From Gammaproteobacteria bacterium (GTDB lineage: Bacteria > Pseudomonadota > Gammaproteobacteria > Steroidobacterales > Steroidobacteraceae), in NCBI GenBank assembly GCA_030038645.1, contig JASHSR010000110.1, forward strand, positions 1 to 39,657: a DNA stretch of 39,657 bases. Reading direction: 5' to 3'. The translations under genes and the position numbers were made by a program. Shown in pieces: positions 1 through 31,887 of the stretch (the stretch's first letter is position 1; the number at the start of each line of letters is the position of its first letter). The notes beneath the pieces were generated by a model, which saw only the letters and a program-made list of their open reading frames with translations, did no database searches and was not told the DNA's origin.

Positions 1-49
1 CGCCCTTTAAGCGATGAGACTGCGGGTTCAAGTCCTGCCGCCGGCACCA
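1..49 (+). tRNA. 3' part of a tRNA-like gene truncated by the window edge; anticodon not safely assignable (loop reads CCTTTAA, which is UUU/Lys-like only if position 33 is C)
   Basis: T arm GCGGG-TTCAAGT-CCTGC (22-38), 3' acceptor strand CGCCGGC (39-45), discriminator A46, encoded CCA 47-49. The 5' half lies outside the window. Confidence 0.6.
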
Positions 50-58
50 CATGAATTT

Positions 59-146
59 GGAGAACAAAGCGGGCAGGGCTCGCACGCGATTGCTAATCGC
101 AGGGAACCGGAAACGGTTTGAGTTTCGAGTACTCTGTTCTCCGCCA
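59..146 (+). tRNA. tRNA-Ser(GCU)-like, class II (long variable arm), best folded with an 8-bp acceptor and a 4-bp T stem
   Basis: Acceptor GGAGAACA (59-66) pairs perfectly with TGTTCTCC (135-142). Anticodon loop TTGCTAA (90-96), anticodon GCT 92-94. Variable arm AACCG-GAAA-CGGTT (105-118). T arm GAGT-TTCGAGT-ACTC (120-134). G143 discriminator, CCA 144-146. Confidence 0.8.
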
Positions 147-153
147 ATCTTCT

Positions 154-242
154 GGATGGTGAAGCGCACAGGGTGCGCCGCCGGCCTGAGCCCGGACGGT
201 ACCGGCAACGGCATGTGGATCGTGTCCGACCGCCATCCGCCA
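154..242 (+). tRNA. tRNA-Ser(UGA)-like, non-canonical and possibly a pseudogene (C at position 33, weak T stem, bulged C)
   Basis: Acceptor GGATGGTG (154-161) pairs with CGCCATCC (231-238), including one G-U. D stem GCGCAC/GTGCGC is a perfect 6 bp. Anticodon loop CCTGAGC (185-191), TGA 187-189. T region GTGG-ATCGTGT-CCGA (215-229) gives only 3 pairs, then unpaired C230. G239, CCA 240-242. Confidence 0.55.
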
Positions 243-246
243 TTTT

Positions 247-334
247 GGAAGGTGAAGCCGTCAGGGTGCGGTCGCCGGCTCGAACCCGGTTGGTGCCTTC
301 GGGCATGGCTTTCGAGTAGTCCCGCCTTCCGCCA
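247..334 (+). tRNA. tRNA-Ser(CGA)-like, class II, with an 8-bp acceptor, one bulged C and a 4-bp T stem
   Basis: Acceptor GGAAGGTG (247-254) pairs with CGCCTTCC (323-330). Anticodon arm GCCGG-CTCGAAC-CCGGT, CGA at 281-283. Variable arm TGCC-TTCG-GGCA. T arm GGCT-TTCGAGT-AGTC (307-321). C322 unpaired. G331, CCA 332-334. Confidence 0.75.
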
Positions 335-338
335 TCTT

Positions 339-427
339 GGAGCGTAAACCGGTCAAGGTGCCGGGACCGGTTGGAAGCCGGATCGTGTCAGCGAAGGGGC
401 CTGTCTCGCTCGCAGTGCGCTCCACCA
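339..427 (+). tRNA. tRNA-Ser(GGA)-like, class II, 8/4 fold with an atypical T loop and an A discriminator
   Basis: Acceptor GGAGCGTA (339-346) pairs with TGCGCTCC (416-423). D stem CCGGT/GCCGG (349-353/360-364). Anticodon loop TTGGAAG (371-377), GGA 373-375. T arm CTGT-CTCGCTC-GCAG (401-415). A424, CCA 425-427. Confidence 0.6.
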
Positions 428-433
428 CTTTAT

Positions 434-504
434 GGGTCGCCCTCTGGGAGGTGCGAGGTCTCCAAAGCCTTGCTGGGTGCGTTCGATTCGTACGCGACCT
501 GCCA
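434..504 (+). tRNA. tRNA-Trp(CCA)-like, only 71 nt, with a truncated D arm
   Basis: Acceptor GGGTCGC (434-440) pairs with GCGACCT (494-500). Anticodon loop CTCCAAA (460-466) is identical to the E. coli tRNA-Trp loop. Canonical T arm GTGCG-TTCGATT-CGTAC (477-493). G501, CCA 502-504. Only 14 nt (441-454) lie between the acceptor and anticodon stems. Confidence 0.65.
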
Positions 505-509
505 ATTAC

Positions 510-585
510 TCAGGTGTGGGTTGCCGGTATCCCACTGCGGCTCTGAACCGCAGCCACGCAGGTCCGACTCCTGCCGCCTGATCCA
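510..585 (+). tRNA. tRNA-Gln(CUG)-like with no 8-9 linker before the D stem
   Basis: Acceptor TCAGGTG (510-516) pairs with CGCCTGA (575-581). D hairpin TGGG-N10-CCCA (517-534). Anticodon arm TGCGG-CTCTGAA-CCGCA (536-552). T arm GCAGG-TCCGACT-CCTGC (558-574). T582, CCA 583-585. Confidence 0.65.
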
Positions 586-587
586 AT

Positions 588-666
588 ACACGAGCCGTGG
601 GTTGCCGGCATCCCCGTTGGGCTTTGAACCCAAAGCACGCAGGTTCGACTCCTGCCTCGTGTTCCA
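588..666 (+). tRNA. tRNA-Gln(UUG)-like (79 nt, enlarged D region)
   Basis: Acceptor ACACGAG (588-594) pairs perfectly with CTCGTGT (656-662). Anticodon arm TTGGG-CTTTGAA-CCCAA (617-633). T arm GCAGG-TTCGACT-CCTGC (639-655). T663, CCA 664-666. Confidence 0.7.
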
Positions 667-903
667 TTTCGCCGCGGAAACGCGAGTCGCGACGCTTCCG
701 GGAACCGGTCGGGAGCGAGGCGGCCATGATGGGCCGCGCGCGGAGAGCGCTGGGCCCCGTAAGCTGCCATTCCGTAGATCGACCGAGCGCGCGGGGATCG
801 CGGGCGCGTCGTTCATTACCCCGTCGGATTCTCCAAAGAATCTGTCGGACTTTCGAAGTCGTGACAATGCTAATCTTCGCGAACCAGCCGAGGGGATCGA
901 GGG

Positions 904-1299
904 ATGGCTAACCACATCGCGCACTTCGAGATTTTCGCAAGCGACGTCGAGCGGGCTCGCAGATTCTATGAGAAAGTTTTCGCGTGGCGATTCGAGGTCG
1001 GCGGTCCGCCCGAGTTTTATCATATCTTCACCGGCCCTGCGGTCGAGCACGGCATCTCACGTGGCCTGATCGCGAAACGCCAAGGGCCCGTGGCGCAGGG
1101 CGGCATCAACGGCTTTCGCTGCACCATCAGCGTGAGCTCGATAAAGGAAACGGCGACGGCAATCGAGGCGGCCGGCGGCAAGCTGCGTTCGGCCATTGTC
1201 GATGTTCCCGGTGTGGGCAAAGTCGTTGAGTTCGCCGATCCCGAGGGCAACATCGCATGCGCGATGCAGTACGAATCGGGCTTCCGATTCACCGAGTAG
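904..1299 (+). CDS. VOC family protein (glyoxalase/bleomycin-resistance/dioxygenase fold), 131 aa
   Basis: ATG 904 preceded by GAGGGG. N-terminus HFEIFASDVERARRFYEKVF and C-terminal FADPEGN are typical of the VOC/glyoxalase fold. Confidence 0.85.
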   Translation: MANHIAHFEIFASDVERARRFYEKVFAWRFEVGGPPEFYHIFTGPAVEHGISRGLIAKRQGPVAQGGINGFRCTISVSSIKETATAIEAAGGKLRSAIVDVPGVGKVVEFADPEGNIACAMQYESGFRFTE

Positions 1300-1323
1300 C
1301 CGAAACTGGGGCCGGGAGCATCA

Positions 1324-2058
1324 GTGGGCTCTATCGAATCGCTCAGATCGTATGTGGAGGGTTACCCGGACGGTGGCCGCATCCCTCGACATGCCCACGA
1401 TTGGGATCAGCTCGCCCTCATCGCCGAATCGGCTGCCATCGTGGAGACCGACGATGTCTACGTCGTACATCCGCTGTTCCGGGGATTGTGGATACCCGCT
1501 GGAGTTCAGCATTCGATCTACTCGCCGCGGCGCTTTTATCTGCACACTCTTTACTTCGAGCCGGGCAGCCTACGCACGGACACGCATCCGCAGGTGCTGA
1601 GTCTCGACAATCTCGCCCGTGAGCTCATCCTGTTCCTCTGTACTGCGCCGCGGCCTTCTCAGCGCGGTGCGAGGCACGCGCACGCGTTGGCATTGCTCGA
1701 AGAGGTTCTGCCTGAGGCTCGCCCGGAGTCATTCTCACTGCCGCGACCCCGGCACGAACGAGCGCGTCAACTCGCCGACTACTTTGCCTCACGACCGGAC
1801 GATGGGCGCTCCGTCGAGATCGTCGCGGCGGAGATTGGCGGCGCGAGTCTGCGGACGTTCGAGCGTCTCTTTGCAGAGGAGACCGGACTGAGCTTGGCGG
1901 CGTGGCGTCGCCACAGTCGGTTGCTCACGTCGCTCTCGCTGCTGGCCGAGGGCAGGAGCGTCGGGGACGTGGCGCATGCCGTTGGCTACGAGAGTGCGGC
2001 GGCCTTCAGCACGGCTTTCAAGCAATGCTTTGGTGTTTCACCGTCGACATACAGCTGA
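1324..2058 (+). CDS. AraC family transcriptional regulator (N-terminal cupin, C-terminal HTH)
   Basis: GTG 1324 with GGGAG 7 nt upstream. The C-terminus (SLRTFERLFAEETGLSLAAWRRHSRL...GYESAAAFSTAFKQCFGVSPSTY) is the AraC HTH signature. Confidence 0.9.
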   Translation: MGSIESLRSYVEGYPDGGRIPRHAHDWDQLALIAESAAIVETDDVYVVHPLFRGLWIPAGVQHSIYSPRRFYLHTLYFEPGSLRTDTHPQVLSLDNLARELILFLCTAPRPSQRGARHAHALALLEEVLPEARPESFSLPRPRHERARQLADYFASRPDDGRSVEIVAAEIGGASLRTFERLFAEETGLSLAAWRRHSRLLTSLSLLAEGRSVGDVAHAVGYESAAAFSTAFKQCFGVSPSTYS

Positions 2059-2173
2059 AGTGTAGTGTCGCGGAATCGCGGGGCGTATACGAACGACATG
2101 TCGCGCCCGGGATCTTGAGGCGAGGTCGGCCCATGGGTGGTGCCATGCGATCTGCGTTTGGCTGCATGCGCGC

Positions 2174-2226
2174 TTGACTCCACCGTTTATATATGTAAAC
2201 TATCGCGACGTTTATTACCGTAAACG
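2174..2226 (+). promoter_or_regulatory. Putative promoter of the blaI-like operon, overlapped by two operator dyads GTTTA-N6-TAAAC
   Basis: -35 TTGACT (2174-2179), 16-nt spacer, -10 TAAACT (2196-2201). Dyad 1 at 2185-2200 (GTTTAtatatgTAAAC). Dyad 2 at 2210-2225 (GTTTAttaccgTAAAC, extendable to CGTTTA..TAAACG). Centres are 25 bp apart in a locally AT-rich patch just upstream of the repressor gene. Confidence 0.6.
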
Positions 2227-2237
2227 ATCGTTCCTCC

Positions 2238-2627
2238 ATGCACCGAGAATCTTCTCCTCCGTCGATCACCGAGGCCGAATCCGCCATCATGGAAGTTCTT
2301 TGGCGACGTAGCCCACTGCCGACGGAAGCGGTTGTGGCCGCGCTCCGCGGCGAGCAGCCGTGGCAGGAGGGCACCATCAAGGCGCTTCTGAACCGCCTAC
2401 TTCGCAAGAGAGCCGTTCGCGCCGAGAGAGACGGGCGGCGGTTTCTGTATTCGCCACTCGTCAGTCGCGACGAGTGGTTATTGACCGAAAGCAGGGGGCT
2501 ATTGGATCGCCTGTTCTCAGGGCGTGTGGCGCCGCTCGCGGCACACTTTAGCCGCCACGGTAAGCTCACCAAGCGCGATATCGCCGATCTGAGACGCCTT
2601 CTCGCGGAGCTCGACGATGACAAATGA
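2238..2627 (+). CDS. BlaI/MecI/CopY family transcriptional repressor
   Basis: 129 aa. The winged-helix N-terminus (ITEAESAIMEVLWRR...TIKALLNRLLRKRAV) is typical of the family. It overlaps the downstream M56 gene by 11 nt. Confidence 0.9.
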   Translation: MHRESSPPSITEAESAIMEVLWRRSPLPTEAVVAALRGEQPWQEGTIKALLNRLLRKRAVRAERDGRRFLYSPLVSRDEWLLTESRGLLDRLFSGRVAPLAAHFSRHGKLTKRDIADLRRLLAELDDDK

Positions 2628-3930
2628 GCTCATGAGGCATCTGTTCTCACTGACGCTCGGCACGAGCTTGGGCATCGTCGCGGCCTTGCTTCTGCGCCGA
2701 GGTGCACGGCTCGCGTTCGGCCCCGCTGCATCCTATTCCATGTGGCTGTTCGTGCCTGTCGCCATGGCGGCCGTGTTTGTGCCGTACGTGCGCGATACAG
2801 GCTCGGCGCTCGGAGTCACCCTGGAGCTCCAATCGGTTTCCGCGCTTCGCCAAGTGTTCGACATATCCGCAGGACCCTCGAATGGCGCCGGATCGCCACT
2901 TGATTGGCCGGCGTGGGCCCTCGGCGCGTGGGGTGCCGGGGCCGTGCTCTTTGCTTTATATCTCGGCGGCTTGCAGCACGCATTCATCAGGAGCCTAGGG
3001 GCGCTGTCGGGCTCACGGTCCGTCCTTCGCGCAGAAAGCTCCGCAGGCTGTCCCGCGTTGCTTGGTGTGCTGCGACCGAAGGTCATCCTGCCCGCCGACT
3101 TCCATCGGCGATACACACGACTGGAGCGGCTGCTGATCTTTGCACATGAGCGAACACATCTGCGCCGCGGCGATGCCGCCTGGAATGCTTTCGCGGCATT
3201 CCTGCGCTGTGTATTCTGGTTCAACCCTCTGGTCCATCTGGGCGCGAGCTGCTTTCGTGTCGATCAGGAGCTCGCATGCGACGCCGCCGTCCTGGAGAAA
3301 CATCCCGGTTCGCGCCGCAGCTACGCGAGCGCCATGCTGAAAACCCAACTGGCCGACGCAGCGTTGCCTATCGGCTGCCATTGGCGATCCGCCTACTACC
3401 TCAAGGAGCGTCTCCAGATGACTAAGAGACCCATGCCCGGTCGCATGCGCCGCATCTGCGGCCACGTGCTCGTCGCGGTGGCTTCGTTGGCGATCGGTTA
3501 CTCGGTGTGGGCTGCGCAACCGGCTGCGGCGGTGCCGACCGCGGCATCCGGAATCTCCGCGCCGACTACCTATTCACCCGCGGCGTTCGCCTCGTCGAGC
3601 TCGGTACGTGTCTATGGGACCGGGGTGACGGTCGAGAATACCGGCGGCTTGACGCAGGTCGTCGGCTCGAGATTACGTCTGGAATTAGAGCCGGGGACCC
3701 AGTTCCAATTCCATGCCGATCGCACGATAGTAATGCGGCCGGACGGGGCAAGAGTCCTTGAAGGACATGTTCGTATCGCCACACAAGCGGTTCGCACGAC
3801 AAGGTCAGGAGCTCACGTGCTCTCGAGACTCGTGCGGCCAGTAATCGCGACTGCCGAGAGAGCCGTGCTTACGCCGCGACAAGGCGGGGGATTTGTAGTG
3901 AGTATTGAGAATGGAAGCGTGCAGTTCTGA
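2617..3930 (+). CDS. BlaR1-like M56 family membrane metalloprotease / signal transducer with a non-PBP C-terminal domain
   Basis: Several N-terminal TM segments. HEXXH zinc motif FAHERTHLRRGD. Operonic with the BlaI-like repressor. The C-terminal ~130 aa is beta-rich and has no SxxK penicillin-binding motif. Confidence 0.85.
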   Translation: MTNELMRHLFSLTLGTSLGIVAALLLRRGARLAFGPAASYSMWLFVPVAMAAVFVPYVRDTGSALGVTLELQSVSALRQVFDISAGPSNGAGSPLDWPAWALGAWGAGAVLFALYLGGLQHAFIRSLGALSGSRSVLRAESSAGCPALLGVLRPKVILPADFHRRYTRLERLLIFAHERTHLRRGDAAWNAFAAFLRCVFWFNPLVHLGASCFRVDQELACDAAVLEKHPGSRRSYASAMLKTQLADAALPIGCHWRSAYYLKERLQMTKRPMPGRMRRICGHVLVAVASLAIGYSVWAAQPAAAVPTAASGISAPTTYSPAAFASSSSVRVYGTGVTVENTGGLTQVVGSRLRLELEPGTQFQFHADRTIVMRPDGARVLEGHVRIATQAVRTTRSGAHVLSRLVRPVIATAERAVLTPRQGGGFVVSIENGSVQF

Positions 3931-4045
3931 TTGCCCTGAAGTCCGTTGCGCGTCGCCTGCCGCTGTTGGTTGAGAGGGCGACTGCCACCGGCTTGTACCG
4001 ACGCCGTTAGTCGATCGAGGAATCCCCTGGGCGCGTACAGCTGGA

Positions 4046-5035
4046 TCAGCTTGTCTGTAGAGGTCCTGCCCCGCGGCGGCGCCACACCGAGGGTGGCACC
4101 CCCACCTGCTTCTTGAAGGCGCGACTGAACGCCGCCTCGGATTCGTACCCAATCTCTTCGGCGATCGATGCGATGTTCGCGCTCGCATCACTGAGAATCC
4201 GCGCCGCAATCTGCATTCGCCATTTGGCGAGATACTGTATCGGCGGCATCCCCAAAAGATCGGTGAAGCGCTCCGCCAGGACAGACCGCGACAAGCCGAC
4301 TCTCTTTCCCAGCTCCTCGATGGTCCAGCCATGCGCCGGATTGCCGTGCATCAGCGATAGCGCTCTGCCAACGAAAGGGTCGCGCAGGCCCGCCAACCAG
4401 CCCGCCTGCTCCGGCGGCATCGCCTCCAGATGTCGGCGCACCACTTCGATGAACATCAACTCGCTGAGTTTGGCGAGCACGCTCTCGCTGCCGGCGCGCC
4501 GGGCTGCCGATTCCGCTACGGCGACACGAATGAACCGAGCGAGCCAGTCTCCGGAGTCGTCCCGCGTAGCTCTTGCCTTCATCACCGCGGGCAGGTTCTC
4601 GAGCAGCGGATTGAACGGTCGCGCATCGCAGGCGAGGAAGCCACACACGAGCTTCGTTGTGGGCGCTCCCTCCCTGCCGTATTTGACGAAAAATGGCAAC
4701 GGACCGGCGCCCGCTTCCGCAATTGCCTCGCGTGTCGGCGGGTTGGCGCGCATACCGGGGCTGCTCGACATGACGTGTGGATCGCCATTGGTAATGACGA
4801 TGACCTCGCCGGCTTCGAGCGCGATCGGTTCCTTGCCAATGACGGTCGCGAAACATCGACCCACGGTGACGACATGGTAGGAGATAAGCCGCTCGCCACC
4901 CGGGAGTATCTTCGGCAGGATGAACTCTGGCGGCGGTTGCTCGACCACCCACGGCTCCGTCGCCGCGACGTCGAAGAACGTCGCGCCGGTCAGCCGCACG
5001 GTTCGCAGCAAATCAGACAGCGCATCGCTCGCCAT
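4046..5035 (-). CDS. AraC family transcriptional regulator with an N-terminal cupin-type sensor domain
   Basis: C-terminal AraC HTH (GLSRSVLAERFTDLLGMPPIQYLAKWRMQIAARIL...IGYESEAAFSRAFKKQVGVPPS). ATG 5035 has GGAG 5 nt upstream. The longest ORF begins at GTG 5053. Confidence 0.88.
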   Translation of the reverse strand: MASDALSDLLRTVRLTGATFFDVAATEPWVVEQPPPEFILPKILPGGERLISYHVVTVGRCFATVIGKEPIALEAGEVIVITNGDPHVMSSSPGMRANPPTREAIAEAGAGPLPFFVKYGREGAPTTKLVCGFLACDARPFNPLLENLPAVMKARATRDDSGDWLARFIRVAVAESAARRAGSESVLAKLSELMFIEVVRRHLEAMPPEQAGWLAGLRDPFVGRALSLMHGNPAHGWTIEELGKRVGLSRSVLAERFTDLLGMPPIQYLAKWRMQIAARILSDASANIASIAEEIGYESEAAFSRAFKKQVGVPPSVWRRRGAGPLQTS

Positions 5036-9483: not shown

Positions 9484-10959
9484 CTATGGCTTCCGAGATT
9501 CGGCGGTCGCGATGAACTGCGTCCGATCCCTCGGAGGCTCCGTCCAGCCTCCGCCGAGCGCCTCGTAAAGGTGGACGACAGCCTGCATGCGGAAAAGCCT
9601 CACCTGGGCGAGCTCGTCTCTCGCGCCGAATAGAGTTTGCTGGGCCTGGAGCACGTTGAGCAAATCGGCTGCTCCCTCGTTGTACTGCAGCTGGGAGATC
9701 CGGAATGCCTCCCCGGCCTCGCTCACCTCCCGACGGAGGAGGCGTTCCTCACTCGCGTAATTCGTCACTTGGCCGAGGGCGGTCTCTACGTCCTCGTAGG
9801 CGTTGAGAACGACGCTCTGATAGCTTGCCACGAGCTGCTGCTGGGTCGCGAAGGCGAGATTCCTCTGTCCGATCAGCTTGCCGCCGGCGAATATCGTCTG
9901 TACGAGTTGAGCGCCTGCCTCCCAGAGGAAGCTCGGTCCATGAACCAGCGCATTGATCGCAGCACTGCCGAAACCCGCGCTGCCACTCAGAGAGAATTGG
10001 GGGAGAAACGCGGCACGCGCCGCCTGGACGTTGGCGTGCGCAGCCGCCAAATTGGCCTCCGCAGCCGCCACGTCGGGCCGGCGCAACAGGAGCTGTGAAG
10101 GGGTGCCCGCGGCGACGGCCGGCACCTGAATCCCGTCCAAGCTTCTGGCCTCGACGCGGAAGTCCTCGGGGGGGCGTCCCAAGAGGACGGCGAGCGCGGC
10201 TCGGGCCTCGAGCTCTTGCTCCTCGAGCGCCGGAACGGCTGCTTGCGCCGACTCAATCTGCGCCTGCTCCTGCGCCAAGTCGAGATTGGAGGCCGTGCCC
10301 GCGGCGACCTTGACCTTCACGACGTTGAGGATTCCGTTAATGGCCGCGATGTCCTCGTTGGCTATCGCGATCTGCTCTCTCAACGCAAGAATGTCGAAGT
10401 AGGTATCCGCGACGGTCGCCGTCACCGTCAACGCGACAGCTTGCTGCGCGAAGCGCGATGACTCGAGAGCTTCCCTTGCCGAGCGAAGGTTGTCGCGCGC
10501 GAGTCCCCAGACATCGAGCTCATACGTCGCTCCGAGATTCAGGCCGAAGGAGTCGAGAGTGGAACCGGCCGGGGTATTGCTCGACGCTGCGGCCGACCCA
10601 GCCCCCGCGCGGTCAGCGTCCGCCTGGGCATCGATCAGGGGAAAGAGCGCAGACCGCTGAATGGTGACCTCGGAGCGAGCCTCCAGCGTGCTCGCGGCCG
10701 CGATCGCCAGATCACGATTGCCCGCCTGTGCCTGAGCAATGAGCGTCGAGAGCTCGGGACTCCCGAATCCTTGCCACCATCCCGCCTGCGGCCATACGGG
10801 TGCGGACGCCGCGGAATGGCCGATGAACGCCTTCGGCACGAATCGCGCCGTCAGCGCCTGCGGCGGCGCGGTCGCGCACCCACAGAGGCAAACTGCCGCG
10901 ATCGCGATCGCAGAGCCCGACGATCGAAGGTGTCTCGGCGGATGCGATGATCTATTCAT
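9484..10959 (-). CDS. Efflux outer-membrane factor lipoprotein, NodT/TolC family
   Basis: Lipobox AAVCLCGC after ATG 10959. Two-repeat TolC-like sequence. The start overlaps the permease stop (ATGAATAG). Confidence 0.9.
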   Translation of the reverse strand: MNRSSHPPRHLRSSGSAIAIAAVCLCGCATAPPQALTARFVPKAFIGHSAASAPVWPQAGWWQGFGSPELSTLIAQAQAGNRDLAIAAASTLEARSEVTIQRSALFPLIDAQADADRAGAGSAAASSNTPAGSTLDSFGLNLGATYELDVWGLARDNLRSAREALESSRFAQQAVALTVTATVADTYFDILALREQIAIANEDIAAINGILNVVKVKVAAGTASNLDLAQEQAQIESAQAAVPALEEQELEARAALAVLLGRPPEDFRVEARSLDGIQVPAVAAGTPSQLLLRRPDVAAAEANLAAAHANVQAARAAFLPQFSLSGSAGFGSAAINALVHGPSFLWEAGAQLVQTIFAGGKLIGQRNLAFATQQQLVASYQSVVLNAYEDVETALGQVTNYASEERLLRREVSEAGEAFRISQLQYNEGAADLLNVLQAQQTLFGARDELAQVRLFRMQAVVHLYEALGGGWTEPPRDRTQFIATAESRKP

Positions 10960-13438
10960 AGCGGAGAGTGCGGGCGGGGCTCGTGCGAGCCAGGCGCACG
11001 GTATGCGCCGAGACCGTCGCCCACGCGATGAGCAATGCGGCAACGCCTGCGGCCAGGAAGTAGAGCGGGTCGAGCGGGATGCGATACGCGAAGCCCGCGA
11101 GCCAGCGCCGCAGATAAAAGTAGGCTACCGGCCAGGCGACGACGTTGGCCATCAGTACGGGCACGGACATGCGCCACAGCATCAGCTTCACGATGTCGCC
11201 CGTGCACGCACCCGAAACCTTGCGAAGACCGATCTCCTTGGCCCTCCTCTCCGCCGAGAAGACCGCCAGGCCGTACAGACCCAAGCACCCGATCAGAATG
11301 GCGATGGTGACGAACACGCCGAACAGGGTGCCCTGGCGGTCGTCCTGCTGGTAAAGCTGGCCGTAGGTCTGATCGAGGAAATAGCGTTGAATGGCGACCG
11401 TCGGCACAAAGGCGTGCCACGTCCGGTCTATGAGGCTCAGCGTCTGCAGAGCGTTCCGAGGCCGCAAGCGCACCGAGAGGCTCATCGGGTAATTCGGTAT
11501 GTAGATGTAGACCGTGGGCGAGACCGATTGTCGCGCGCCTTGAACCTTGGTGTCCGCCAGAACGCCCACGATGTGAACGTGATTGTGATTGTATTCGATG
11601 GTCTTTCCGGCCGCTTCCCGTGGAGTGAAGCCCAGCCTCCGAGCGGCGGCGGCATTGATCAGGACATCGCGACCTTCATTTCCGGGATCGCCGCCGGTCA
11701 CGATTCCGATGCTGCTGAGTCGATCATCGCCACGCGAGACAGATAACGGGCGGCCCGCCACGAGTGGAATGCCATAGGTTGCCGGGTAGTCGGGACCAAT
11801 GACCACGGTATTGAGGGTCACCAGATCGGGCTGTCCCGGAACATGAATCGCCGAAAGCATCTGACCGGGCTCGAACGGTACGATGTCCGAGAGGCCGACG
11901 CTCGCCACCCCTGGGATCGTGCGAAGAGCGTCGGCAAAGTCCTGCAGTCGCCTGCCTTCGAGGTCGCTGTTTGCGATGACCACGATGTCGTCGTGGCGGA
12001 AGCCCAGGTTGATGTGACGCGCGTAGCTGATTTGGTTGAACACCACGCCGGCCGCGACGCCCAATCCGATGGAGACCGCGAACTGAGCCATCACGAGAAG
12101 ATTGCGGAGGCTCCAGGGCTCGGCCCGGCGAAGACCGTCGGTCCGGAAGGCAGCGATCGGGCGGAACCCGGACAGCACCAGCGCCGGATAGCTGCCGCTG
12201 ACGAGGCCCGTGACGACGGCGATGCCGACGAGCAAGAGAATCAATCCGCCGTCGGATGCGTAGCGCCAGCCGATCGGGTGACCGAGGAAGCGGTCGAGCA
12301 GCGGCAGCAGCATTTCTCCCGCAGCGAGCGCGAGCGCCAGGGATAAGAGTGCCGTCAGGACCGCCTCCCCCAGGAACTGAACGATCAGCTGCCGCCGGCT
12401 CGCGCCCACGATTTTGCGCAATGCAATCTCGCGTGCCCGTACCAAGGCGACGGCGGTCGCGAGATTCATGAAGTTGAAGCACGCACTCAAAAGGATCAGT
12501 ACGCCGACGGCTGCGACACCGTAGATCGTCGTCCAGCTTCCAGGGGGCGTCGCATTGAACCTCCACTGCGCGGAATCGAGGTGTACGCGGGTGAAGGGCG
12601 TGAGGTGAACGCTGTAGGCTTGGCTGCCGCGGATTCGAAGCCCGTACTTGCGCAACATCGGAGTCACGCTCCTGTCCAAGAGCGGCGCCATGCGGGCGAC
12701 CACGACCGCAGGGTCCACACCCGGCGCGAGGGTGACGTAGCCCCAGCCGTTCTCGCTGAACCAGTCGTGTTTCAGCTGGTCCCAGGATCGATCCGCGCGC
12801 GACGTGTCGGGAATGAACACGTCGCCTGTCAGCTGAGTGTCATGCGGTAGATTTTTCACGATGCCAGTCACCCTGAGCGCGACAGTCTCGTTCTGGCATG
12901 CGGTATTCTTTGCGTCGCAAGCGGCCGTGCTGGCGGTCAAAAAGCGCCCCATGGGATCTGCGGCGCCGAAGTACTTCTTCACCGCGGATTGCGAGAGGAC
13001 AACGGACTCCGGTTGGCGGAACACGGTGTCCGGGCTTCCCGCGACGAGAGGGAGCCGCATGATCCCGAAGAAGTTCGGGTCCACTACGTTCACCGTCTGC
13101 GGGAACTGTCGATCGCCGCTCGTTAGCGTCAATGGCTGCCAGTGTAATTGCGTCATCCCGGTGACACCCGGAATCTCGTCTCGCATCGCGGGCAGCATTG
13201 GATAGGGGATGACGGCGAGCGGTAGCGGCGGCCGGTCTGGCAGGCGGATGGTCAATTCCACTCGGTACAAATCCTGCGTGCCCGGAATCCACTTGTCGTA
13301 GGAGAGCTCGTCGCGGATGAACAAGACGACAAAGAGCACGCACGTGAGCCCGATCGCGAGGCCGACGATGTTGATGACGCTGTAAAGCTTGTGCCGGACG
13401 AGATTTCGCCACGCGACCGTCAGGTAATTGCGGAACAT
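10952..13438 (-). CDS. ABC transporter permease, double FtsX/MacB-periplasmic-domain type (~828 aa)
   Basis: N-terminus MFRNYLTVAWRNLVRHKLYSVINIVGLAIGL is typical of the 800-aa FtsX-family permeases. ATG 13438 with GAGGAG 6 nt upstream. Confidence 0.9.
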   Translation of the reverse strand: MFRNYLTVAWRNLVRHKLYSVINIVGLAIGLTCVLFVVLFIRDELSYDKWIPGTQDLYRVELTIRLPDRPPLPLAVIPYPMLPAMRDEIPGVTGMTQLHWQPLTLTSGDRQFPQTVNVVDPNFFGIMRLPLVAGSPDTVFRQPESVVLSQSAVKKYFGAADPMGRFLTASTAACDAKNTACQNETVALRVTGIVKNLPHDTQLTGDVFIPDTSRADRSWDQLKHDWFSENGWGYVTLAPGVDPAVVVARMAPLLDRSVTPMLRKYGLRIRGSQAYSVHLTPFTRVHLDSAQWRFNATPPGSWTTIYGVAAVGVLILLSACFNFMNLATAVALVRAREIALRKIVGASRRQLIVQFLGEAVLTALLSLALALAAGEMLLPLLDRFLGHPIGWRYASDGGLILLLVGIAVVTGLVSGSYPALVLSGFRPIAAFRTDGLRRAEPWSLRNLLVMAQFAVSIGLGVAAGVVFNQISYARHINLGFRHDDIVVIANSDLEGRRLQDFADALRTIPGVASVGLSDIVPFEPGQMLSAIHVPGQPDLVTLNTVVIGPDYPATYGIPLVAGRPLSVSRGDDRLSSIGIVTGGDPGNEGRDVLINAAAARRLGFTPREAAGKTIEYNHNHVHIVGVLADTKVQGARQSVSPTVYIYIPNYPMSLSVRLRPRNALQTLSLIDRTWHAFVPTVAIQRYFLDQTYGQLYQQDDRQGTLFGVFVTIAILIGCLGLYGLAVFSAERRAKEIGLRKVSGACTGDIVKLMLWRMSVPVLMANVVAWPVAYFYLRRWLAGFAYRIPLDPLYFLAAGVAALLIAWATVSAHTVRLARTSPARTLRYE

Positions 13439-13504
13439 CACGCACTCCTCGACGCCGTGGCAGCGTCTTCCGGCGGTGACGGCGCTTCTCTTCCCACCCG
13501 CGGC

Positions 13505-15985
13505 TTACTCGTAGCGCAGTGCATGAATCGGGCTCGCCCGCGCGAGGCGCAGCGTGTGCGCGAACACCGTGGCCCAGGCAATGATCAGCGCGACCGCGCC
13601 GCCGGCGAGGAAGTAAATCGGGCTGAGAGAGATCCGATAGGCATACCCCTCGAGCCAGCGAGCCAGGTAGTGGTAAGCGACGGGCCACGCGACGACATTC
13701 GCGACGAGCACCGGCACCGAGATCCTCCACAACATCAGTCTCAGGATGTCATGCGTCCGGGCGCCGGCGATCTTGCGCACGCCGATCTCCTTCGTACGCC
13801 GCTCCGCTGTGAATACCGCGAGCCCGAACAGACCCAGACAGGCGATGAAGATCGCGACGCCGACGAACAGTCCCAGCATCTCGCCCTGCTTCTCGTCCGG
13901 CTGGAACAAGCTATCGAAAGCGTCGATCAGGTAATAGCGGTTGATCGCGACGTCGGGAGCGAATGAGCGCCACGTTCGATCGATGAAGGAGAGCGTGTTC
14001 GCCGCGTGATCGCCGCGGACTCGAATGGACAGCATTCGCATCATGTGCGGATCGGCCGTGTCGAAGTAGTACAGCGTCGGCTGTACCGGGTCTCGCATGC
14101 CTTCGAGCTTCGCATCGCTCAGAACCCCGACGATCGTCGCCGTGGAGTGACCGTTGATCGTCACCCGCCTACCCACCGCATCGACGGGCGAGAAACCCAG
14201 GCGGTGTGCGCCTGTGGCATTGATGAGCACACTGCCTCCAACGCCGCGGCCCGTGAGGTCCTCACCCCGCTGGTCCGACAGGAATCGGCCCGCGAGCAGC
14301 TTGATGCCATACAGCGACGGAAACTCAGGTCCAATGTTGATGATCTGCGCCGGAACGGAGGCCGGCTCACCTGAGGTCCGAATCTGATCGTTATCCACAT
14401 ACGAGAGGTCGAAAGGAACGGCATTCGAGTACGCGACGCCGACGATCTGCGGATCCAGACGGAGCGAAGCAGCGAAGCTTTCCCGTTGGGATGGCGTGAG
14501 CCGGCCAACGCCTCGAACGATGACGATGCCATCGCGTTCGAAGCCGAGAGGCACTTTGCGCGCAAAGTCGACCTGCCTGAACACGACGAGGGCTACGACG
14601 CCGAGCCCGATCGAGATGGCGAACTGAGCGACGACCAGCGCCGAGCGCAACAATCCAGGACTGCTTGAGCTGGAGACGCCCGACCTCAGCGTCCGCGCCG
14701 GACGGAACCCGGAGAGTACGACCGCTGGATAAAGACCGCTTACCAGCCCGACCGCGATAGCGCCTGCAGCGAGAGCCGCGAGCAGTTTCCAGTCAGCGAG
14801 ATAGCGAAGTGCGATGGGCCCTCCCAGGAAGCGATCATAGAGAGGCAGCAGGATCTCCACTAGAGACAGGGCGATCGCAAGCGACACGACGGAGAACAGC
14901 ACTGCTTCCACGAGAAGCTGCACGACGAGCTCCGCTCGCTTCGCGCCCTCGACCTTGCGCACGGCGATCTCGCGGGCTCGAAGTGTCGCCCGTGCGGTCG
15001 CGAGGTTCGTGAAGTTACAACAGGCGATTAGAACGATCAGCAGCGCAATCGCCCCCAGTCCGTATACGGTCGTCCAGCTCCCGCCGGGCGTCATTCCGAG
15101 GTACTGGTCGCTCGTGAGATGAGCGTCTCGGAACGGCGTCAAGCGGTACTGCTCGAACTCACTCATGCGCAGATCGACGCCCAGTTTCCGTGGGTCGAAG
15201 GACCTGTCCAGTATCGCCTTCAGGTCTGCGAGGACGGCTGCCGGATCGGCGCCCGGCGTCAGGTTGACATAGCCGTAATCGTCGTCGCCACTGGTCCAGT
15301 CGTACATCTTCTCAAACGGCGACATGCCGTCTGCGCGCGACGTGTTCGGCACGACGAGGTCCGCCACCAGCTGCGTGTTGTGTGGAAGATCCCGGAGCAC
15401 TCCGGTGACGATGAGTGGGTAGACCGCGGAGAGACACGCGCTGTCGTTGGCACCACAAGCGCTGTTGTCGTCCGGACCGAGGGTCAAGGTCTTTCCGATC
15501 GGATCGACAGCTCCGAAGTACTTCCGCGCCGTGCTCTGGGACAGTACGACGGAATCGGGCTGGGCGAGCGCGCGCGCCGGATCACCCTCCACGAGCGGTA
15601 GCTCGATGACCCGAAAGAAATTCGGATCGACGAAAGTGACGGTTTCTCGAAATTGACGGTCGCCGATGTTCGCCGTCATCTGCTCGGGCATTACGTGAGT
15701 CACCGCATTCACCTGCGGGATCTGCCCTGGGATCGCCGAGACGACCGGAAACGGCGCCATGGCGAGAGGCGCCGGAGCGCGGCCCGGGATGTGAAAGGTG
15801 ACCTCGAGGCGATAGAGACTCCCGGTGTCCGGAATCCACCTGTCGTACGAGAGCTCGTCCCGAATGTACAGCGCGATCAGGATCGCCGCCGCCAAGCCGA
15901 TCGACAGCCCCGCGATGTTGATGAAGCTATAAAGCTTGTGATGCGCGAAGGCGCGTACGGCAGCGATGAGGTAGTGCCGGAGCAT
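13505..15985 (-). CDS. ABC transporter permease, double FtsX/MacB-periplasmic-domain type (paralogue, 826 aa)
   Basis: MLRHYLIAAVRAFAHHKLYSFINIAGLSIGL. Collinear similarity to the downstream permease over its full length. Confidence 0.9.
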   Translation of the reverse strand: MLRHYLIAAVRAFAHHKLYSFINIAGLSIGLAAAILIALYIRDELSYDRWIPDTGSLYRLEVTFHIPGRAPAPLAMAPFPVVSAIPGQIPQVNAVTHVMPEQMTANIGDRQFRETVTFVDPNFFRVIELPLVEGDPARALAQPDSVVLSQSTARKYFGAVDPIGKTLTLGPDDNSACGANDSACLSAVYPLIVTGVLRDLPHNTQLVADLVVPNTSRADGMSPFEKMYDWTSGDDDYGYVNLTPGADPAAVLADLKAILDRSFDPRKLGVDLRMSEFEQYRLTPFRDAHLTSDQYLGMTPGGSWTTVYGLGAIALLIVLIACCNFTNLATARATLRAREIAVRKVEGAKRAELVVQLLVEAVLFSVVSLAIALSLVEILLPLYDRFLGGPIALRYLADWKLLAALAAGAIAVGLVSGLYPAVVLSGFRPARTLRSGVSSSSSPGLLRSALVVAQFAISIGLGVVALVVFRQVDFARKVPLGFERDGIVIVRGVGRLTPSQRESFAASLRLDPQIVGVAYSNAVPFDLSYVDNDQIRTSGEPASVPAQIINIGPEFPSLYGIKLLAGRFLSDQRGEDLTGRGVGGSVLINATGAHRLGFSPVDAVGRRVTINGHSTATIVGVLSDAKLEGMRDPVQPTLYYFDTADPHMMRMLSIRVRGDHAANTLSFIDRTWRSFAPDVAINRYYLIDAFDSLFQPDEKQGEMLGLFVGVAIFIACLGLFGLAVFTAERRTKEIGVRKIAGARTHDILRLMLWRISVPVLVANVVAWPVAYHYLARWLEGYAYRISLSPIYFLAGGAVALIIAWATVFAHTLRLARASPIHALRYE

Positions 15986-16003
15986 TGTCCGAAACCGGCA
16001 GCT

Positions 16004-16690
16004 CTACGCAATCTGCCGGATGTTCTCGGTGACGACCGCCCCGTCGAGCAGGTTGACGACGCGGTGGGCGTACTCGGCGTGCGGCCGCGAGTGCGTCACC
16101 ATCACGACGGTCGTTCCTTTCGCGTTGAGCTCGGTGAGCAGCTGCATGACTTCCTCACCCGTCGCGGAGTCGAGATTTCCGGTGGGCTCATCCGCGAGCA
16201 GCAGCCGGGGCTGAGAGACCACGGCTCGGGCGATGGCGACGCGCTGCTGCTGGCCGCCGGAGAGCTGCTGCGGCCTGTGCTTGGCTCGGTGGGCGACTTT
16301 CATGCTCTCCAGCGTCTGGCGTACCCGAGCTTTGCGTTCCCGGGCGGAGACGTCTCGGTGATAGAGCAATGCGAGCTCTACGTTCTCGAAGACATTGAGC
16401 TCATCGACCAGATTGAAGCTCTGGAAGATGAAGCCGACACTGTTCTTGCGCAGCTCCGAGAGCTCGCCTTCCGACCAGCCGGCGATATTGCGGTCCGAGA
16501 ACCAGTATTCCCCGGCGGTAGGAGTGTCCAGCATGCCGACGATGTTGAGGAGCGTCGATTTGCCGCAGCCGGAGGGGCCCATCACGGCGACGAACTCCCC
16601 GGCGGCGATGTCCAGATCGACCTCGCGCAGCGCCGTCGTCTCGACATCTGTGGTGCGGTAGACCTTGGAAACGCGTTTGAGCGACAGCAT
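16004..16690 (-). CDS. ABC transporter ATP-binding protein (MacB/LolD-type ATPase)
   Basis: Walker A GPSGCGKS, signature LSGGQQQR, Walker [12 protein letters not shown] 16690 with GGGGAG upstream. Confidence 0.92.
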
Positions 16691-16709
16691 GCTCGGCTCC
16701 CCGTGAAGA

Positions 16710-17975
16710 TCAGTTCGAGTGGCTCGGCTTCTCGAGCTCGATACGGTCGACGTCCTTGAACCCTTGGTAACTCGAGATGACGACGCGCTCGCCCGGCTCG
16801 AGTCCCTGTAGAACCTCGACGTCATCGGGATTGCGCCGGCCGAGCTGGATATTTCGGCGTATCGCATACCGGCCAGCGGGTGTCAGGACGAACGCCCAGT
16901 TCCCGCCGGTGTCTTGATAGAAAGGCCCGTTCGGCAGCATCAGGGCGGTCGATGCGCCGCCGAGCTCCAATCTCGTGTCGATCGCCTGGCCGACCTGCAG
17001 GCCCTGCGGCGCCGGGCCCGAGAAGTGCAGGTCGACCTTGAAGGTTCCGTCGGATACCTGCGGGTGGATCATGACGATTTGCGCCTCGAGCTCGCGGCCT
17101 CCGACATCGAACCGCGCAATTTGCCCGAGCGCAACGCGCCCTATGTAGAACTCATCGACCAGCGCGGTGAGCTTGAAGCGGTCGAGGGAATCGACCTCGC
17201 CCAGCACGGTCCCGGCGGGCTTCGACTCCCCGACCTGGGCGTCGAGCGCGGTGAGCTGCCCGTTCATGGGCGCGCGAATGGTGAGGTCGTCGAGGCTGGC
17301 CTTGGCGGTCGCGATGTCGTCCCTCAGCGAGGCGAGCGTCTTGCCGAGCTGGGAAAGCTGGGCGGCGCGCACCCGCTGCTCGGCGTCGCGAGAGGCGATG
17401 GTGGCATCACGCAGCTCGAGCTCATAGCGGTATTGCTCCTGCTCTTGCGCGTAGAGCGAGGGGGCAATGGCCTTGCCATCCAACAGAATCTTGTCTCGGG
17501 CGAGATTGCTTCGCAGCACGGCGATCTGGTGCTGAGTGTCGAGCAGATCCCGCTGGTACTGGAACCGGGTCTGCTCGAGCTGGAGCCGGGTACTCTCGAT
17601 GGCGTTGATCTGGCTCGCGGTGCTGGCCTCGCGAGAGGTCACTTGCAGGCTCAAGGCGGCATTGGACAGCACGATGAGCGGCTGGCCCGCCTTCACGGTC
17701 GCGCCGTCCTCGGCGAGCACTTGCCTGACGACGCCTCCCTGCTCGGTCGTGAGGTAATTCGTCGTGAGCGGCGCCACCGTGGCGCGCACCGCGATGTAAT
17801 CCTCGAACTTGCCGCGCGTCACCGTTCCGATCGTCAGCTGATCCGCCGGGACTCGGTAGGTGCTGATACTCGCTCCGCGCAGCAGCCAGATCGCGATTCC
17901 CATGGCGAGGGCTCCGGCGAGCGCATGGGGACCGTAGCGACGCCAGAGGGGTGGGCGGGCGAGCCGCCTGTCCAT
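16710..17975 (-). CDS. HlyD-family periplasmic adaptor (membrane fusion protein)
   Basis: N-terminal TM segment (ALAGALAMGIAIWLL), coiled-coil-rich middle, beta-barrel C-terminus. Start placed at ATG 17975 because the predicted sigma-54 transcription start (~18081) leaves no leader for the ATG at 18080. Confidence 0.85.
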   Translation of the reverse strand: MDRRLARPPLWRRYGPHALAGALAMGIAIWLLRGASISTYRVPADQLTIGTVTRGKFEDYIAVRATVAPLTTNYLTTEQGGVVRQVLAEDGATVKAGQPLIVLSNAALSLQVTSREASTASQINAIESTRLQLEQTRFQYQRDLLDTQHQIAVLRSNLARDKILLDGKAIAPSLYAQEQEQYRYELELRDATIASRDAEQRVRAAQLSQLGKTLASLRDDIATAKASLDDLTIRAPMNGQLTALDAQVGESKPAGTVLGEVDSLDRFKLTALVDEFYIGRVALGQIARFDVGGRELEAQIVMIHPQVSDGTFKVDLHFSGPAPQGLQVGQAIDTRLELGGASTALMLPNGPFYQDTGGNWAFVLTPAGRYAIRRNIQLGRRNPDDVEVLQGLEPGERVVISSYQGFKDVDRIELEKPSHSN

Positions 17976-18091
17976 CGCATCGCCGGAGGGGAGCCCCGCC
18001 TGTCCGCCGCCACCCAATCGCCCGCTCGCAGAGGGAAGCGGGAGATCCCTGCGAGCTCGCTGATGCCCACCCCACGTCATGGCCGCAGGGT

Positions 18092-31664: not shown

Positions 31665-31887
31665 TGGCCCCCTCCCCGAACGAGCGCCGCGACCGTCGCG
31701 CTTCCGGGTGTGATCCTACAGGGGGTTCGGCCCTCTGAGAATGGCTTCCCTCGACCGCCTGTTGTACTCTCAAACGTGCCTTGACGGCGAGGAGAGAGAG
31801 CGTCCGGCCGCTTCGTGCGACCGCGCTCAGGGGGCCCGCTTGAGACCGTCTGAAGCCGCGTCACGCCCGCGGCTTCGAGGTGCGAAG

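Follow-up and report, generated by a model that had tools for sequence, protein, structure and literature searches.

The window, by which we mean the whole stretch of 39,657 nucleotides analyzed here (contig JASHSR010000110.1 of assembly GCA_030038645.1, a gammaproteobacterium placed in the Steroidobacteraceae), begins within an array of tRNA genes: its first 666 nucleotides are the 3′ end of a one-strand array of 38 tRNA units and 3.1 kb in the chromosome of a soil gammaproteobacterium. We read this array as an accessory, phage-type and at least partly functional one that was horizontally acquired, i.e. as a representative of the so-called L-arrays, and put the probability of this reading at roughly 0.6. 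The anatomy of the array, the kinship of its members with phage-type tRNAs, its full extent and the covariation in its folds are directly observed. The units are probably not vertically inherited housekeeping genes, because only one of the 38 resembles E. coli tRNAs and because eight relatives are free of tRNAs near the NUDIX gene that precedes the array. Their structure is under selection, as judged from compensatory changes in the Ser-GCU and Trp units, from pairing-preserving single-nucleotide polymorphisms (SNPs) and from the contrast in GC content between spacers and units. Elements of this kind have already been described; the present one is unusually dense and complete, is chromosomal and belongs to a Steroidobacteraceae-like lineage that the array surveys searched do not mention.

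Extent and composition of the array

The glyoxalase-family protein encoded downstream of the array (904-1299) was looked up in public assemblies, which yielded ten contigs of the same locus. Two of them, L004 and L005, reach 3.65 kb farther upstream than the start of the window and contain 30 more units, in line with the suspicion of an earlier, sequence-only reading of the window that the array may continue in this direction. In L004, the array spans positions 1186-4319, with 38 units in 3134 nt, all on the + strand. This number and a density of 12.1 units per kb place it well within the published definition of a tRNA array unit (at least 20 tRNA genes and at least 2 per kb; Tran et al. 2016). 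Its single orientation and short spacers would permit co-transcription, and it is non-periodic: similarities are confined to paralogous tRNAs, and a multi-gene block is never repeated. Units were parsed by tiling according to acceptor pairing and CCA end, followed by folding and hand reading; all units but one (37/38) encode the CCA end, and among the 37 that were chained by acceptor-plus-CCA tiling, 28 have perfect 7-bp acceptor stems.

The anticodons of the array cover all 20 amino acids, and identity elements are kept: Ala has G3:U70, His an encoded G-1, Cys and Gly U73, and Trp G73; the variable arm is long in Ser, Leu and Tyr, and one Met unit has a GGG/CCC anticodon stem. Since these elements agree with the anticodons, nothing points to recoding. 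Of the roles that the sequence-only reading had proposed, recoding is therefore disfavored, whereas an accessory role is strengthened by the odd shapes, the features shared with phages, the low similarity to E. coli tRNAs, the absence next to the NUDIX gene in eight relatives and the replacement of alleles. The same reading had emphasized a full set of serine isoacceptors. As the window starts inside a complete 20-amino-acid array, the serine set is one block of it and not a serine-specific device; the four Ser genes are a block of tandem paralogs, the Leu, Arg, Thr, Pro, Glu, Gln and Met isoacceptors are also grouped by amino acid, and phage clusters group their isoacceptors in the same way.

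Position 33 is almost universally U in tRNAs. C33 is found in two units of the window (Lys-UUU and Ser-UGA) and in three upstream units (Val-UAC, Lys-CUU and Ala-UGC).

Two upstream units stand out individually. Lys-CUU (L004 1601-1676; anticodon loop CCCUUAC, with C33) is the sole unit ending in AUCA and not ACCA, and is otherwise a good tRNA (45.8 bits in Rfam); it would either need repair by a CCA-adding enzyme or carry a recent point mutation. Unit 13 (L004 2176-2235) measures 60 nt and has a UCCA end, a 6-bp acceptor-like stem and a T-like hairpin; a D arm is absent, and a possible anticodon loop, AUAGCGU, would give AGC without the accompanying G3:U70. We read it as a D-armless tRNA-like RNA or as a remnant left by a deletion.

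The 37 spacers of the array contain 25% GC, as compared with 64% in the units and 61-65% in the flanks, and have a median length of 5 nt; their lengths range from 1 to 7 nt in L004 and reach 9 nt in the window, where they read, in order, CATGAATTT, ATCTTCT, TTTT, TCTT, CTTTAT, ATTAC and AT. They presumably represent the single-stranded junctions at which RNase P and 3′-trimming would resolve a polycistronic precursor. Separation of closely spaced tRNA genes by RNase P only is established for some E. coli operons.

The units of the window and their detection

In window positions 1-666, eight tRNA units follow each other head to tail on the + strand, with spacers of 9, 7, 4, 4, 6, 5 and 2 nt, and all end in NCCA. 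Folding and hand reading assign the anticodons GCU, UGA, CGA, GGA, CCA, CUG and UUG to units 2-8; all seven of these complete units have fully paired acceptor stems, and their 7-nt anticodon loops are readable. The compact, CCA-ended series that the sequence-only reading had described is thus confirmed with its coordinates, spacers and anticodons, and unit 1, which had been left unassigned, is identified as Lys-UUU because it aligns with the complete unit of L004. Gammaproteobacteria ordinarily encode the CCA end, as established for E. coli, and the emphasis formerly placed on this feature is therefore unwarranted.

From a partial anticodon stem with the loop CCUUUAA (C33), Lys-UUU continues in the window through a variable loop of 6 nt and the T arm GCGGG-UUCAAGU-CCUGC to the 3′ strand of the acceptor, A73 and CCA. 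Its alleles in the window and in L004 differ by compensatory changes in the T stem and in pair 31:39, and both have C33. Alternative registers of this unit, which would yield UUA or UAA, were rejected in a hand check against the L004 alignment because they do not pair. The two Gln units at the other end are 80% identical and are tandem paralogs.

Most units are missed by standard tools because their shapes are non-canonical. ARAGORN with default settings calls only Gln-CUG and Gln-UUG, two of the eight units of the window; relaxed thresholds, applied to the same sequences in L004, add Ser-CGA, Ser-GCU and Ser-UGA. The anticodons of Ser-GGA and Trp were read by hand, the Trp call being backed by homology to an annotated phage tRNA-Trp. 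The Rfam tRNA model RF00005 (cut-off 29 bits) is reached by a single unit, Gln-UUG (595-663), with 30 bits. In a sensitive Rfam scan, the four Ser units have no match in the tRNA clan even at E ≤ 10, and Trp and Gln-CUG have only weak matches to tRNA-Sec (23.6 and 19.1 bits); the former, the best score, lies below the 47 bits that, together with a UCA anticodon, mark membership in tRNA-Sec (RF01852). A tRNA-Sec or suppressor reading of the units was rejected, as UCA, CUA and UUA anticodons are absent. The eight units hence do not all score as ordinary tRNAs, which bears out the earlier impression that members depart from the canonical cloverleaf. They are tRNA-like by anatomy though they fail the sequence-profile test of Rfam, and they are far beyond chance because seven complete acceptor stems are fully paired and 30 more units lie upstream in other assemblies.

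For the whole array in L004, ARAGORN with default settings reports 20 tRNAs and Rfam at its cut-off reports 15; at least 23 of the 38 units are recognized by one or the other, 15 are missed by both, and relaxed ARAGORN backs 11 of the hand assignments. Default annotation thus sees a quarter of the units in the window and about half of the array; because standard annotation misses units in this way, such arrays are under-counted in soil genomes and spurious open reading frames (ORFs) are called over them. The ORFs that overlap the array here (window 371-1069 on the + strand and 430-1050 on the − strand; L004 3265-3867 and 4083-4469, both on the − strand) are annotated publicly as genes of 128-200 amino acids, without Pfam matches. 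These gene calls are almost certainly spurious and arise where tRNA finders overlook non-canonical units.

Table 1. Features of the window, with the order of units in the complete array (numbered from its 5′ end in L004)
Feature	Position in window	Strand	Basis or remark
tRNA-Lys(UUU), 3′ part, cut by contig end	1..49	+	aligns to complete unit L004 3628-3706
tRNA-Ser(GCU), Sec-like 8/4 fold	59..146	+	all stems paired; compensatory changes; relaxed ARAGORN on L004 copy
tRNA-Ser(UGA)	154..242	+	fold; relaxed ARAGORN; pairing-preserving strain SNPs
tRNA-Ser(CGA)	247..334	+	fold; ARAGORN at 90% thresholds calls Ser-cga on identical L004 copy
tRNA-Ser(GGA), most deviant Ser unit	339..427	+	hand reading; missed by tools even at relaxed thresholds
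tRNA-Trp(CCA), 71 nt	434..504	+	architecture shared with Acinetobacter phage Acba_22 tRNA-Trp and IMG/VR phage contigs
tRNA-Gln(CUG): 6-bp anticodon stem, T loop UCCGACU (C55), U73, CCA	510..585	+	ARAGORN default; fold
tRNA-Gln(UUG), final array unit: enlarged D region, canonical T loop, U73, CCA	588..666	+	ARAGORN; Rfam
Spacers	50-58, 147-153, 243-246, 335-338, 428-433, 505-509, 586-587	+	AU-rich
Non-coding stretch, array end to glyoxalase-family gene (904-1299)	667..903	+	
Array units 1-12			Gly-UCC, Asn, Asp, Val-UAC, Tyr, Lys-CUU, Ala-UGC, Glu-CUC, Glu-UUC, Leu-CAG, His, Cys
Array units 13-23			60-nt oddity, Pro-UGG, Pro-CGG, Ile-GAU, Gly-GCC, Arg-UCU, Arg-CCU, Leu-UAA, Leu-CAA, Leu-GAG, Phe
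Array units 24-31			Met, Met, Arg-ACG, Arg-CCG, Thr-GGU, Thr-UGU, Thr-CGU, Lys-UUU
Array units 32-38			Ser-GCU, Ser-UGA, Ser-CGA, Ser-GGA, Trp, Gln-CUG, Gln-UUG

The Ser units and their alleles

A hallmark of the four Ser units is an 8-bp acceptor stem, with 8/8 pairs formed, which is followed by a two-nt AA linker and a D stem of 5-6 bp closed by a loop of only 3-4 nt. The T stem has 4/4 pairs in GCU, CGA and GGA and 3/4 in UGA, the variable arm has 5-6 pairs in GCU, UGA and CGA and about 3 in GGA, and the discriminator is G73 in GCU, UGA and CGA and A73 in GGA. The 12-bp branch of (8/4) tRNA-Ser (8-bp acceptor plus 4-bp T stem) is accordingly found in these units, with the one missing T-stem pair in UGA, as are the Sec-like D arm and the long variable arm, the latter shortened in GGA. 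The class is further defined by a G73 or U73 discriminator, from which Ser-GGA departs, and by charging through seryl-tRNA synthetase (SerRS), which for the units described here is a prediction.

Individually, Ser-GCU has a D stem of 6/6 pairs with a 3-nt loop, a variable arm of 6/6 pairs with a GAAA loop, the T loop UUCGAGU and G73, whereas an alternative 7/5 reading would make pair 49:65 a U-U or U-C. Ser-UGA combines a 6-bp D stem with the anticodon loop CCUGAGC (C33) and the T loop AUCGUGU; Ser-CGA has a 5-bp anticodon stem, the loop CUCGAAC and a variable arm with a UUCG loop; and one extra C is placed between T stem and acceptor strand in both. Ser-GGA has the T loop CUCGCUC (UUCGCUC in other strains), lacks A58 and has a weak variable arm; at 71% identity to the neighboring Ser units it is a tandem paralog.

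The first ~146 nt of the window are an allele that differs from every other assembly (L001-L005, L008-L010), and comparison of the alleles provides evidence for the Ser-GCU fold. Between the window and L004, 11 stem pairs of Ser-GCU differ, of which 7 are changed on both sides and still paired. The 8th acceptor pair (A:U to G:C) belongs to these 7, as do 3 of the 4 pairs in the T stem; the unpaired parts show just 2 differences. Pairs were counted on a hand-curated alignment of elements because MAFFT had put the gap in the Ser D arm in the wrong register. SNPs between strains in the stems of the array are pairing-preserving transitions, for instance C:G to U:G and U:G to U:A in Ser-UGA. The L004 allele of Ser-GCU has only 3 anticodon-stem pairs, and the Ser-UGA copy in L003 carries stem-breaking changes.

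Within the divergent segment, it is the Lys-UUU tail and Ser-GCU that differ strongly, and identity to the other assemblies sets in at the CCA of Ser-GCU; both alleles have the same 22-nt D arm in Ser-GCU. The divergent allele may stem from a strain variant produced by recombination or from a second array related to this one, or it may result from a chimeric join where the contig ends.

The Trp unit

In the Trp unit, the acceptor of 7 bp (G1-U72) is directly continued by a D stem of 4 bp, which is closed by a 3-nt loop. An anticodon stem of 7 bp and a variable loop of 3 nt follow; the T arm is canonical, and the unit ends with G73 and CCA. An alignment with the tRNA-Trp of Acba_22 has 52 identical columns out of 71 (BLAST, ~81% over 80 nt). 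When a homolog from IMG/VR is added, all 23 pairs of the fold are kept in the three sequences and 7 of them are changed on both sides; true pairs are formed in 100% of cells, as opposed to 38-49% in controls in which the structure was slid by 1-3 columns. The grouping of reduced-D-arm tRNA-Trp was defined here from these three sequences and is not a published family.

Two phage tRNA clusters from IMG/VR (L062 184-216 and L065 2963-2995) contain a shorter relative of the reduced-D-arm tRNA-Trp; with ~67 nt and the acceptor AGGCGAC...GUCGCCU-G-CCA, its D arm seems to be reduced further, which suggests that D-arm loss in phage tRNA-Trp may form a graded series.

Kinship with phage tRNAs and a putative alternative elbow

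Position 55 is almost universally U (pseudouridine) in tRNAs. In 13 upstream units of the array, the T loop reads UGCRAGU, with G55; this type is absent from the eight units of the window. A motif scan for two G55 T arms one tRNA-length apart retrieved 31 viral contigs from IMG/VR, of which 27 carry tRNAs detectable by ARAGORN, up to 37 in one stretch, and several are of jumbo-phage size.

The G55 T loop is accompanied by a change in the D loop. In the array, the GG of the D loop is present in 15/15 units with a UUC-type T loop vs 3/14 of the others (the 13 G55 units plus Thr-UGU, with a CGC loop), in which AGC mostly takes its place. Among phage-cluster tRNAs (n = 303), GG is present in 123 and absent from 2 with the UUC loop, and present in 34 and absent from 105 with the UGC loop (Fisher p = 2e-40); the viral loci were chosen by the G55 motif, which biases the frequency of the type and not this cross-tabulation. 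Canonical ..GGUAG.. is replaced by ..AGUAG.. or ..CAGCAG... The loci concerned are L004 1759-3623, which lies outside the window, and the viral loci L011-L041 and L060. From the loss of GG together with the G55 T loop it follows that G18-to-A covaries with U55-to-G while G19:C56 is kept, which implies, at the level of sequence, that A18 may pair with G55 in an alternative tRNA elbow. A description of this covariation was not found in the searchable literature.

The resemblance to phage clusters extends further: of 380 tRNAs in these clusters, 15 have C33, among them one with the same Val loop as in the array (CCUACAA), and some phage-cluster Ser tRNAs have an 8-bp acceptor with a 4-bp T stem, in agreement with the published occurrence of (8/4) tRNA-Ser in phages (PMC5389517). 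Of the 38 units, by comparison, only one shows similarity, which is partial, to any E. coli chromosomal tRNA.

Comparison with known arrays and irregular tRNAs

L-arrays comprise up to 43 tRNA genes on one strand in a non-periodic order; they are supernumerary, spread by horizontal transfer and inducible under translational stress, an induction seen in Anabaena, and they are poorly transcribed in the few cases studied (PMC8421152). Known arrays include the trn operon of Anabaena PCC 7120, the arrays on integrative and conjugative elements (ICEs) of Acidithiobacillus and those of Mycobacterium plasmids and phages (PMC8421152, PMC4758250, PMC5966550, PMC12803027). The array described here is similar in that dozens of tRNA genes for most or all amino acids follow each other on one strand with very short spacers, that members deviate from the canonical tRNAs of the host and that its occurrence among relatives may be patchy. 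It differs in lying at the dense extreme and in its surroundings, where an ICE, plasmid, phage or homing-endonuclease context is not visible.

The Ser units match the (8/4) tRNA-Ser and allo-tRNAs (Mukai et al. 2017), the former of which occur in phages, proteobacteria and rumen bacteria (PMC5389517): the 8-bp acceptor and 4-bp T stem, the long D stem closed by a very short loop, the long variable arm, G73, Ser anticodons and location within tRNA clusters are common to both. Unlike in the published cases, all four Ser isoacceptors are present here as tandem paralogs, two units have an extra nucleotide between T stem and acceptor, and one has A73 and a degenerate T loop; non-serine anticodons are completely lacking among them, so the missense- and nonsense-suppressor aspect of allo-tRNAs does not apply. 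With the acidobacterial soil polycistrons (Mukai et al. 2017, Fig. 4), the array shares the origin from soil, the head-to-tail arrangement and the mixture of 7/5 and 8/4 units; those polycistrons are short (tRNA0, tRNA1, tRNA2), have mismatched pairs of anticodon and identity and lie beside toxin-antitoxin genes, whereas this array is a full set with matched identities, without toxin-antitoxin genes nearby and in a gammaproteobacterial host.

Phage clusters (T5-like, Acinetobacter and IMG/VR jumbo phages) have in common with the array the grouping of isoacceptors, G55 with loss of GG, C33 and the reduced-D-arm Trp. In contrast to them, the array is chromosomal, has no phage genes nearby and is denser and more complete than most; beyond Trp, only short segments of arms are similar, and a BLAST comparison of the 38 units with the phage clusters that were fetched gave just arm matches of 19-40 nt.

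Proposed role and alternative explanations

In our reading, the array holds an additional tRNA complement that serves all 20 amino acids and whose shapes come from the tRNA pool of phages and mobile elements. We infer co-transcription, processing, charging and a reserve role, which could be linked as follows: A promoter within the 450 nt that follow the NUDIX gene would drive transcription of a single precursor. RNase P would cleave at the 5′ end of each unit, and the AU-rich trailers of 1-9 nt would be trimmed back to the encoded CCA. Host synthetases would then charge the products by means of the retained identity elements. The resulting supernumerary reserve would plausibly be usable when ordinary tRNAs are depleted or cleaved by toxins, or under translational stress.

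Several observations weigh against an accessory array that was acquired horizontally and is still functional. (i) Concerning origin, a sensitive BLAST search of the whole array against sequenced phages and plasmids found single-tRNA matches and no homologous array. A scan of JGI metagenomes with a 22-nt D-arm segment of Ser-GCU gave two matches, both by chance inside an ABC-transporter signature motif, and an IMG/VR scan with the D-arm pattern of Ser-UGA/CGA gave six, none of them tRNA-like. (ii) Concerning insertion, no integrase, homing endonuclease or phage gene is found in the 39-kb window or in L004, and no flanking direct repeats, as an insertion scar, around the array; downstream of NUDIX, synteny with the eight relatives is absent, because of which a clean empty site cannot be defined. 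(iii) Concerning function, a scan of the + strand for consensus promoters and terminators revealed nothing convincing, and several units look damaged (the UCA end of Lys-CUU, the remnant-like unit 13, Ser-GGA and Ser-UGA). (iv) The supernumerary status of the array is itself something that we infer.

Phage and array tRNAs have been proposed to act as nuclease-insensitive replacements through changes in their anticodon domain (PMC10264068, PMC12803027), and the C33 loops are compatible with this idea, without being proof of it. In a stronger version of the reserve hypothesis, the array is a domesticated, complete spare decoding set, structurally distinct from the normal one, whose C33 loops (Lys, Val, Ala and Ser-UGA), A18/G55 elbow (in about a third of the members), 8/4 Ser units and reduced Trp would evade anticodon nucleases and other tRNA-targeting toxins. 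We regard this version as speculative and rather unlikely; if it were true, a free-living bacterium would be able to maintain translation during the destruction of its ordinary tRNAs.

The damaged units lead to another explanation, namely that the array arrived on a phage or mobile element and is now a silent, eroding relic, most members of which do not function in translation. Loss of the CCA in Lys-CUU and of the cloverleaf in the 60-nt unit 13, the missing A58, A73 and weak variable arm of Ser-GGA, the imperfect T arm of Ser-UGA, the three-pair anticodon stem of Ser-GCU in L004 and the stem-breaking changes in L003 would all be expected from decay, as would the negative promoter scan, and poor transcription has precedent among L-arrays (PMC8421152). 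Decay is difficult to reconcile, however, with the Ser-GCU alleles, which keep every acceptor, D, variable-arm and T pair through 7 double changes, with the predominance of perfect acceptors and CCA ends (28/37 and 37/38 units) and with spacers that have stayed short and AU-rich. Moreover, G55 with loss of the D-loop GG, C33 and the reduced-D-arm Trp are conserved designs shared with phages and not random damage. A relic is therefore considered unlikely.

Many units deviate at positions that matter on the ribosome or in the elbow (C33, G55 or C55, reduced D arms), which could also mean that the units do not decode at all and act as decoys or regulators, tRNA-like RNAs that would soak up or sense toxins, nucleases or synthetases or yield fragments. 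Mukai et al. found some irregular polycistronic tRNAs to be charged yet unused in translation, and allo-tRNAs to lie near toxin-antitoxin loci (PMC5389517). Such a function would not need a complete, non-redundant anticodon set for 20 amino acids with matched identity and an initiator-like Met, toxin-antitoxin or defence genes are not seen in the 39-kb window, and 8/4 and 9/3 tRNAs are translation-competent in E. coli (PMC5389517); we consider the decoy function improbable.

That the array is an unusually compact housekeeping operon with the organism's only Ser, Trp, Gln and other tRNA genes is most improbable: a set complete for 20 amino acids with an initiator-like tRNA, the absence of other tRNA genes from the window and chromosomal surroundings without mobile-element genes would fit, but the lack of resemblance to E. 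coli tRNAs in all units but one despite a gammaproteobacterial host, the 15 units missed by both default searches, the tRNA-free NUDIX anchor of eight relatives and the habit of Gammaproteobacteria to scatter their tRNA genes (PMC8421152) speak against it, and replacement of whole units between strains and loss of a CCA would hardly be tolerated in essential single-copy genes.

Expression of the accessory array, if it occurs, would mean that a chromosome holds a full reserve set of tRNAs of phage-type, non-canonical design. It would bear on how bacteria and mobile elements cope with tRNA-targeting toxins and defence nucleases, and on how far departures from U33, from the G18-Ψ55 contact and from the 7/5 acceptor branch are tolerated. 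The co-occurring 8/4 Ser isoacceptors and reduced-D-arm Trp are possible scaffolds for engineered orthogonal tRNAs.

Genomic surroundings

With genes of Steroidobacteraceae and of uncultured gammaproteobacterial metagenome-assembled genomes, the NUDIX gene that directly precedes the array shares 75-82% identity. This points to a Steroidobacteraceae-like gammaproteobacterial host, an assignment for which this one small gene is the basis; the PSD/PSCyt and MacB-type genes of the window would rather have suggested Acidobacteria or Planctomycetes, and an acidobacterial origin, first considered because of the domains encoded and of the work of Mukai et al., was rejected in favor of the former. In eight relatives with a NUDIX ortholog of 60-82% identity, no tRNA lies within 10 kb of it. 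ARAGORN finds no tRNA genes outside the array in the 39-kb window, where toxin-antitoxin, defence, tRNA-processing and synthetase genes are likewise absent, and an intrinsic terminator was not detected after the array (667-903).

In L004, a promoter-like site, TTGACT-17-TACAAA, is discernible by eye at ~866-894 and is weak. The 450-nt leader between NUDIX and the first tRNA also contains a 64-nt element (L004 1048-1111), in which CGGGGG...CCCCCG enclose a 7-bp hairpin (GAGAGCG/CGCUCUC) and are followed by CCCA; it may be a leader structure or a degenerate unit.

The remaining genes of the 39-kb window have ordinary chromosomal functions and include, besides the glyoxalase-family gene, those for AraC regulators, BlaI/BlaR1, a Rieske oxygenase, MacB-type efflux, histidine kinases and a PQQ dehydrogenase. 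A PSD/PSCyt (‘planctomycete cytochrome’) protein is encoded at 31741-34407, and two tandem MacB-type FtsX permeases with OEP and an HlyD partner at 9484-18080.

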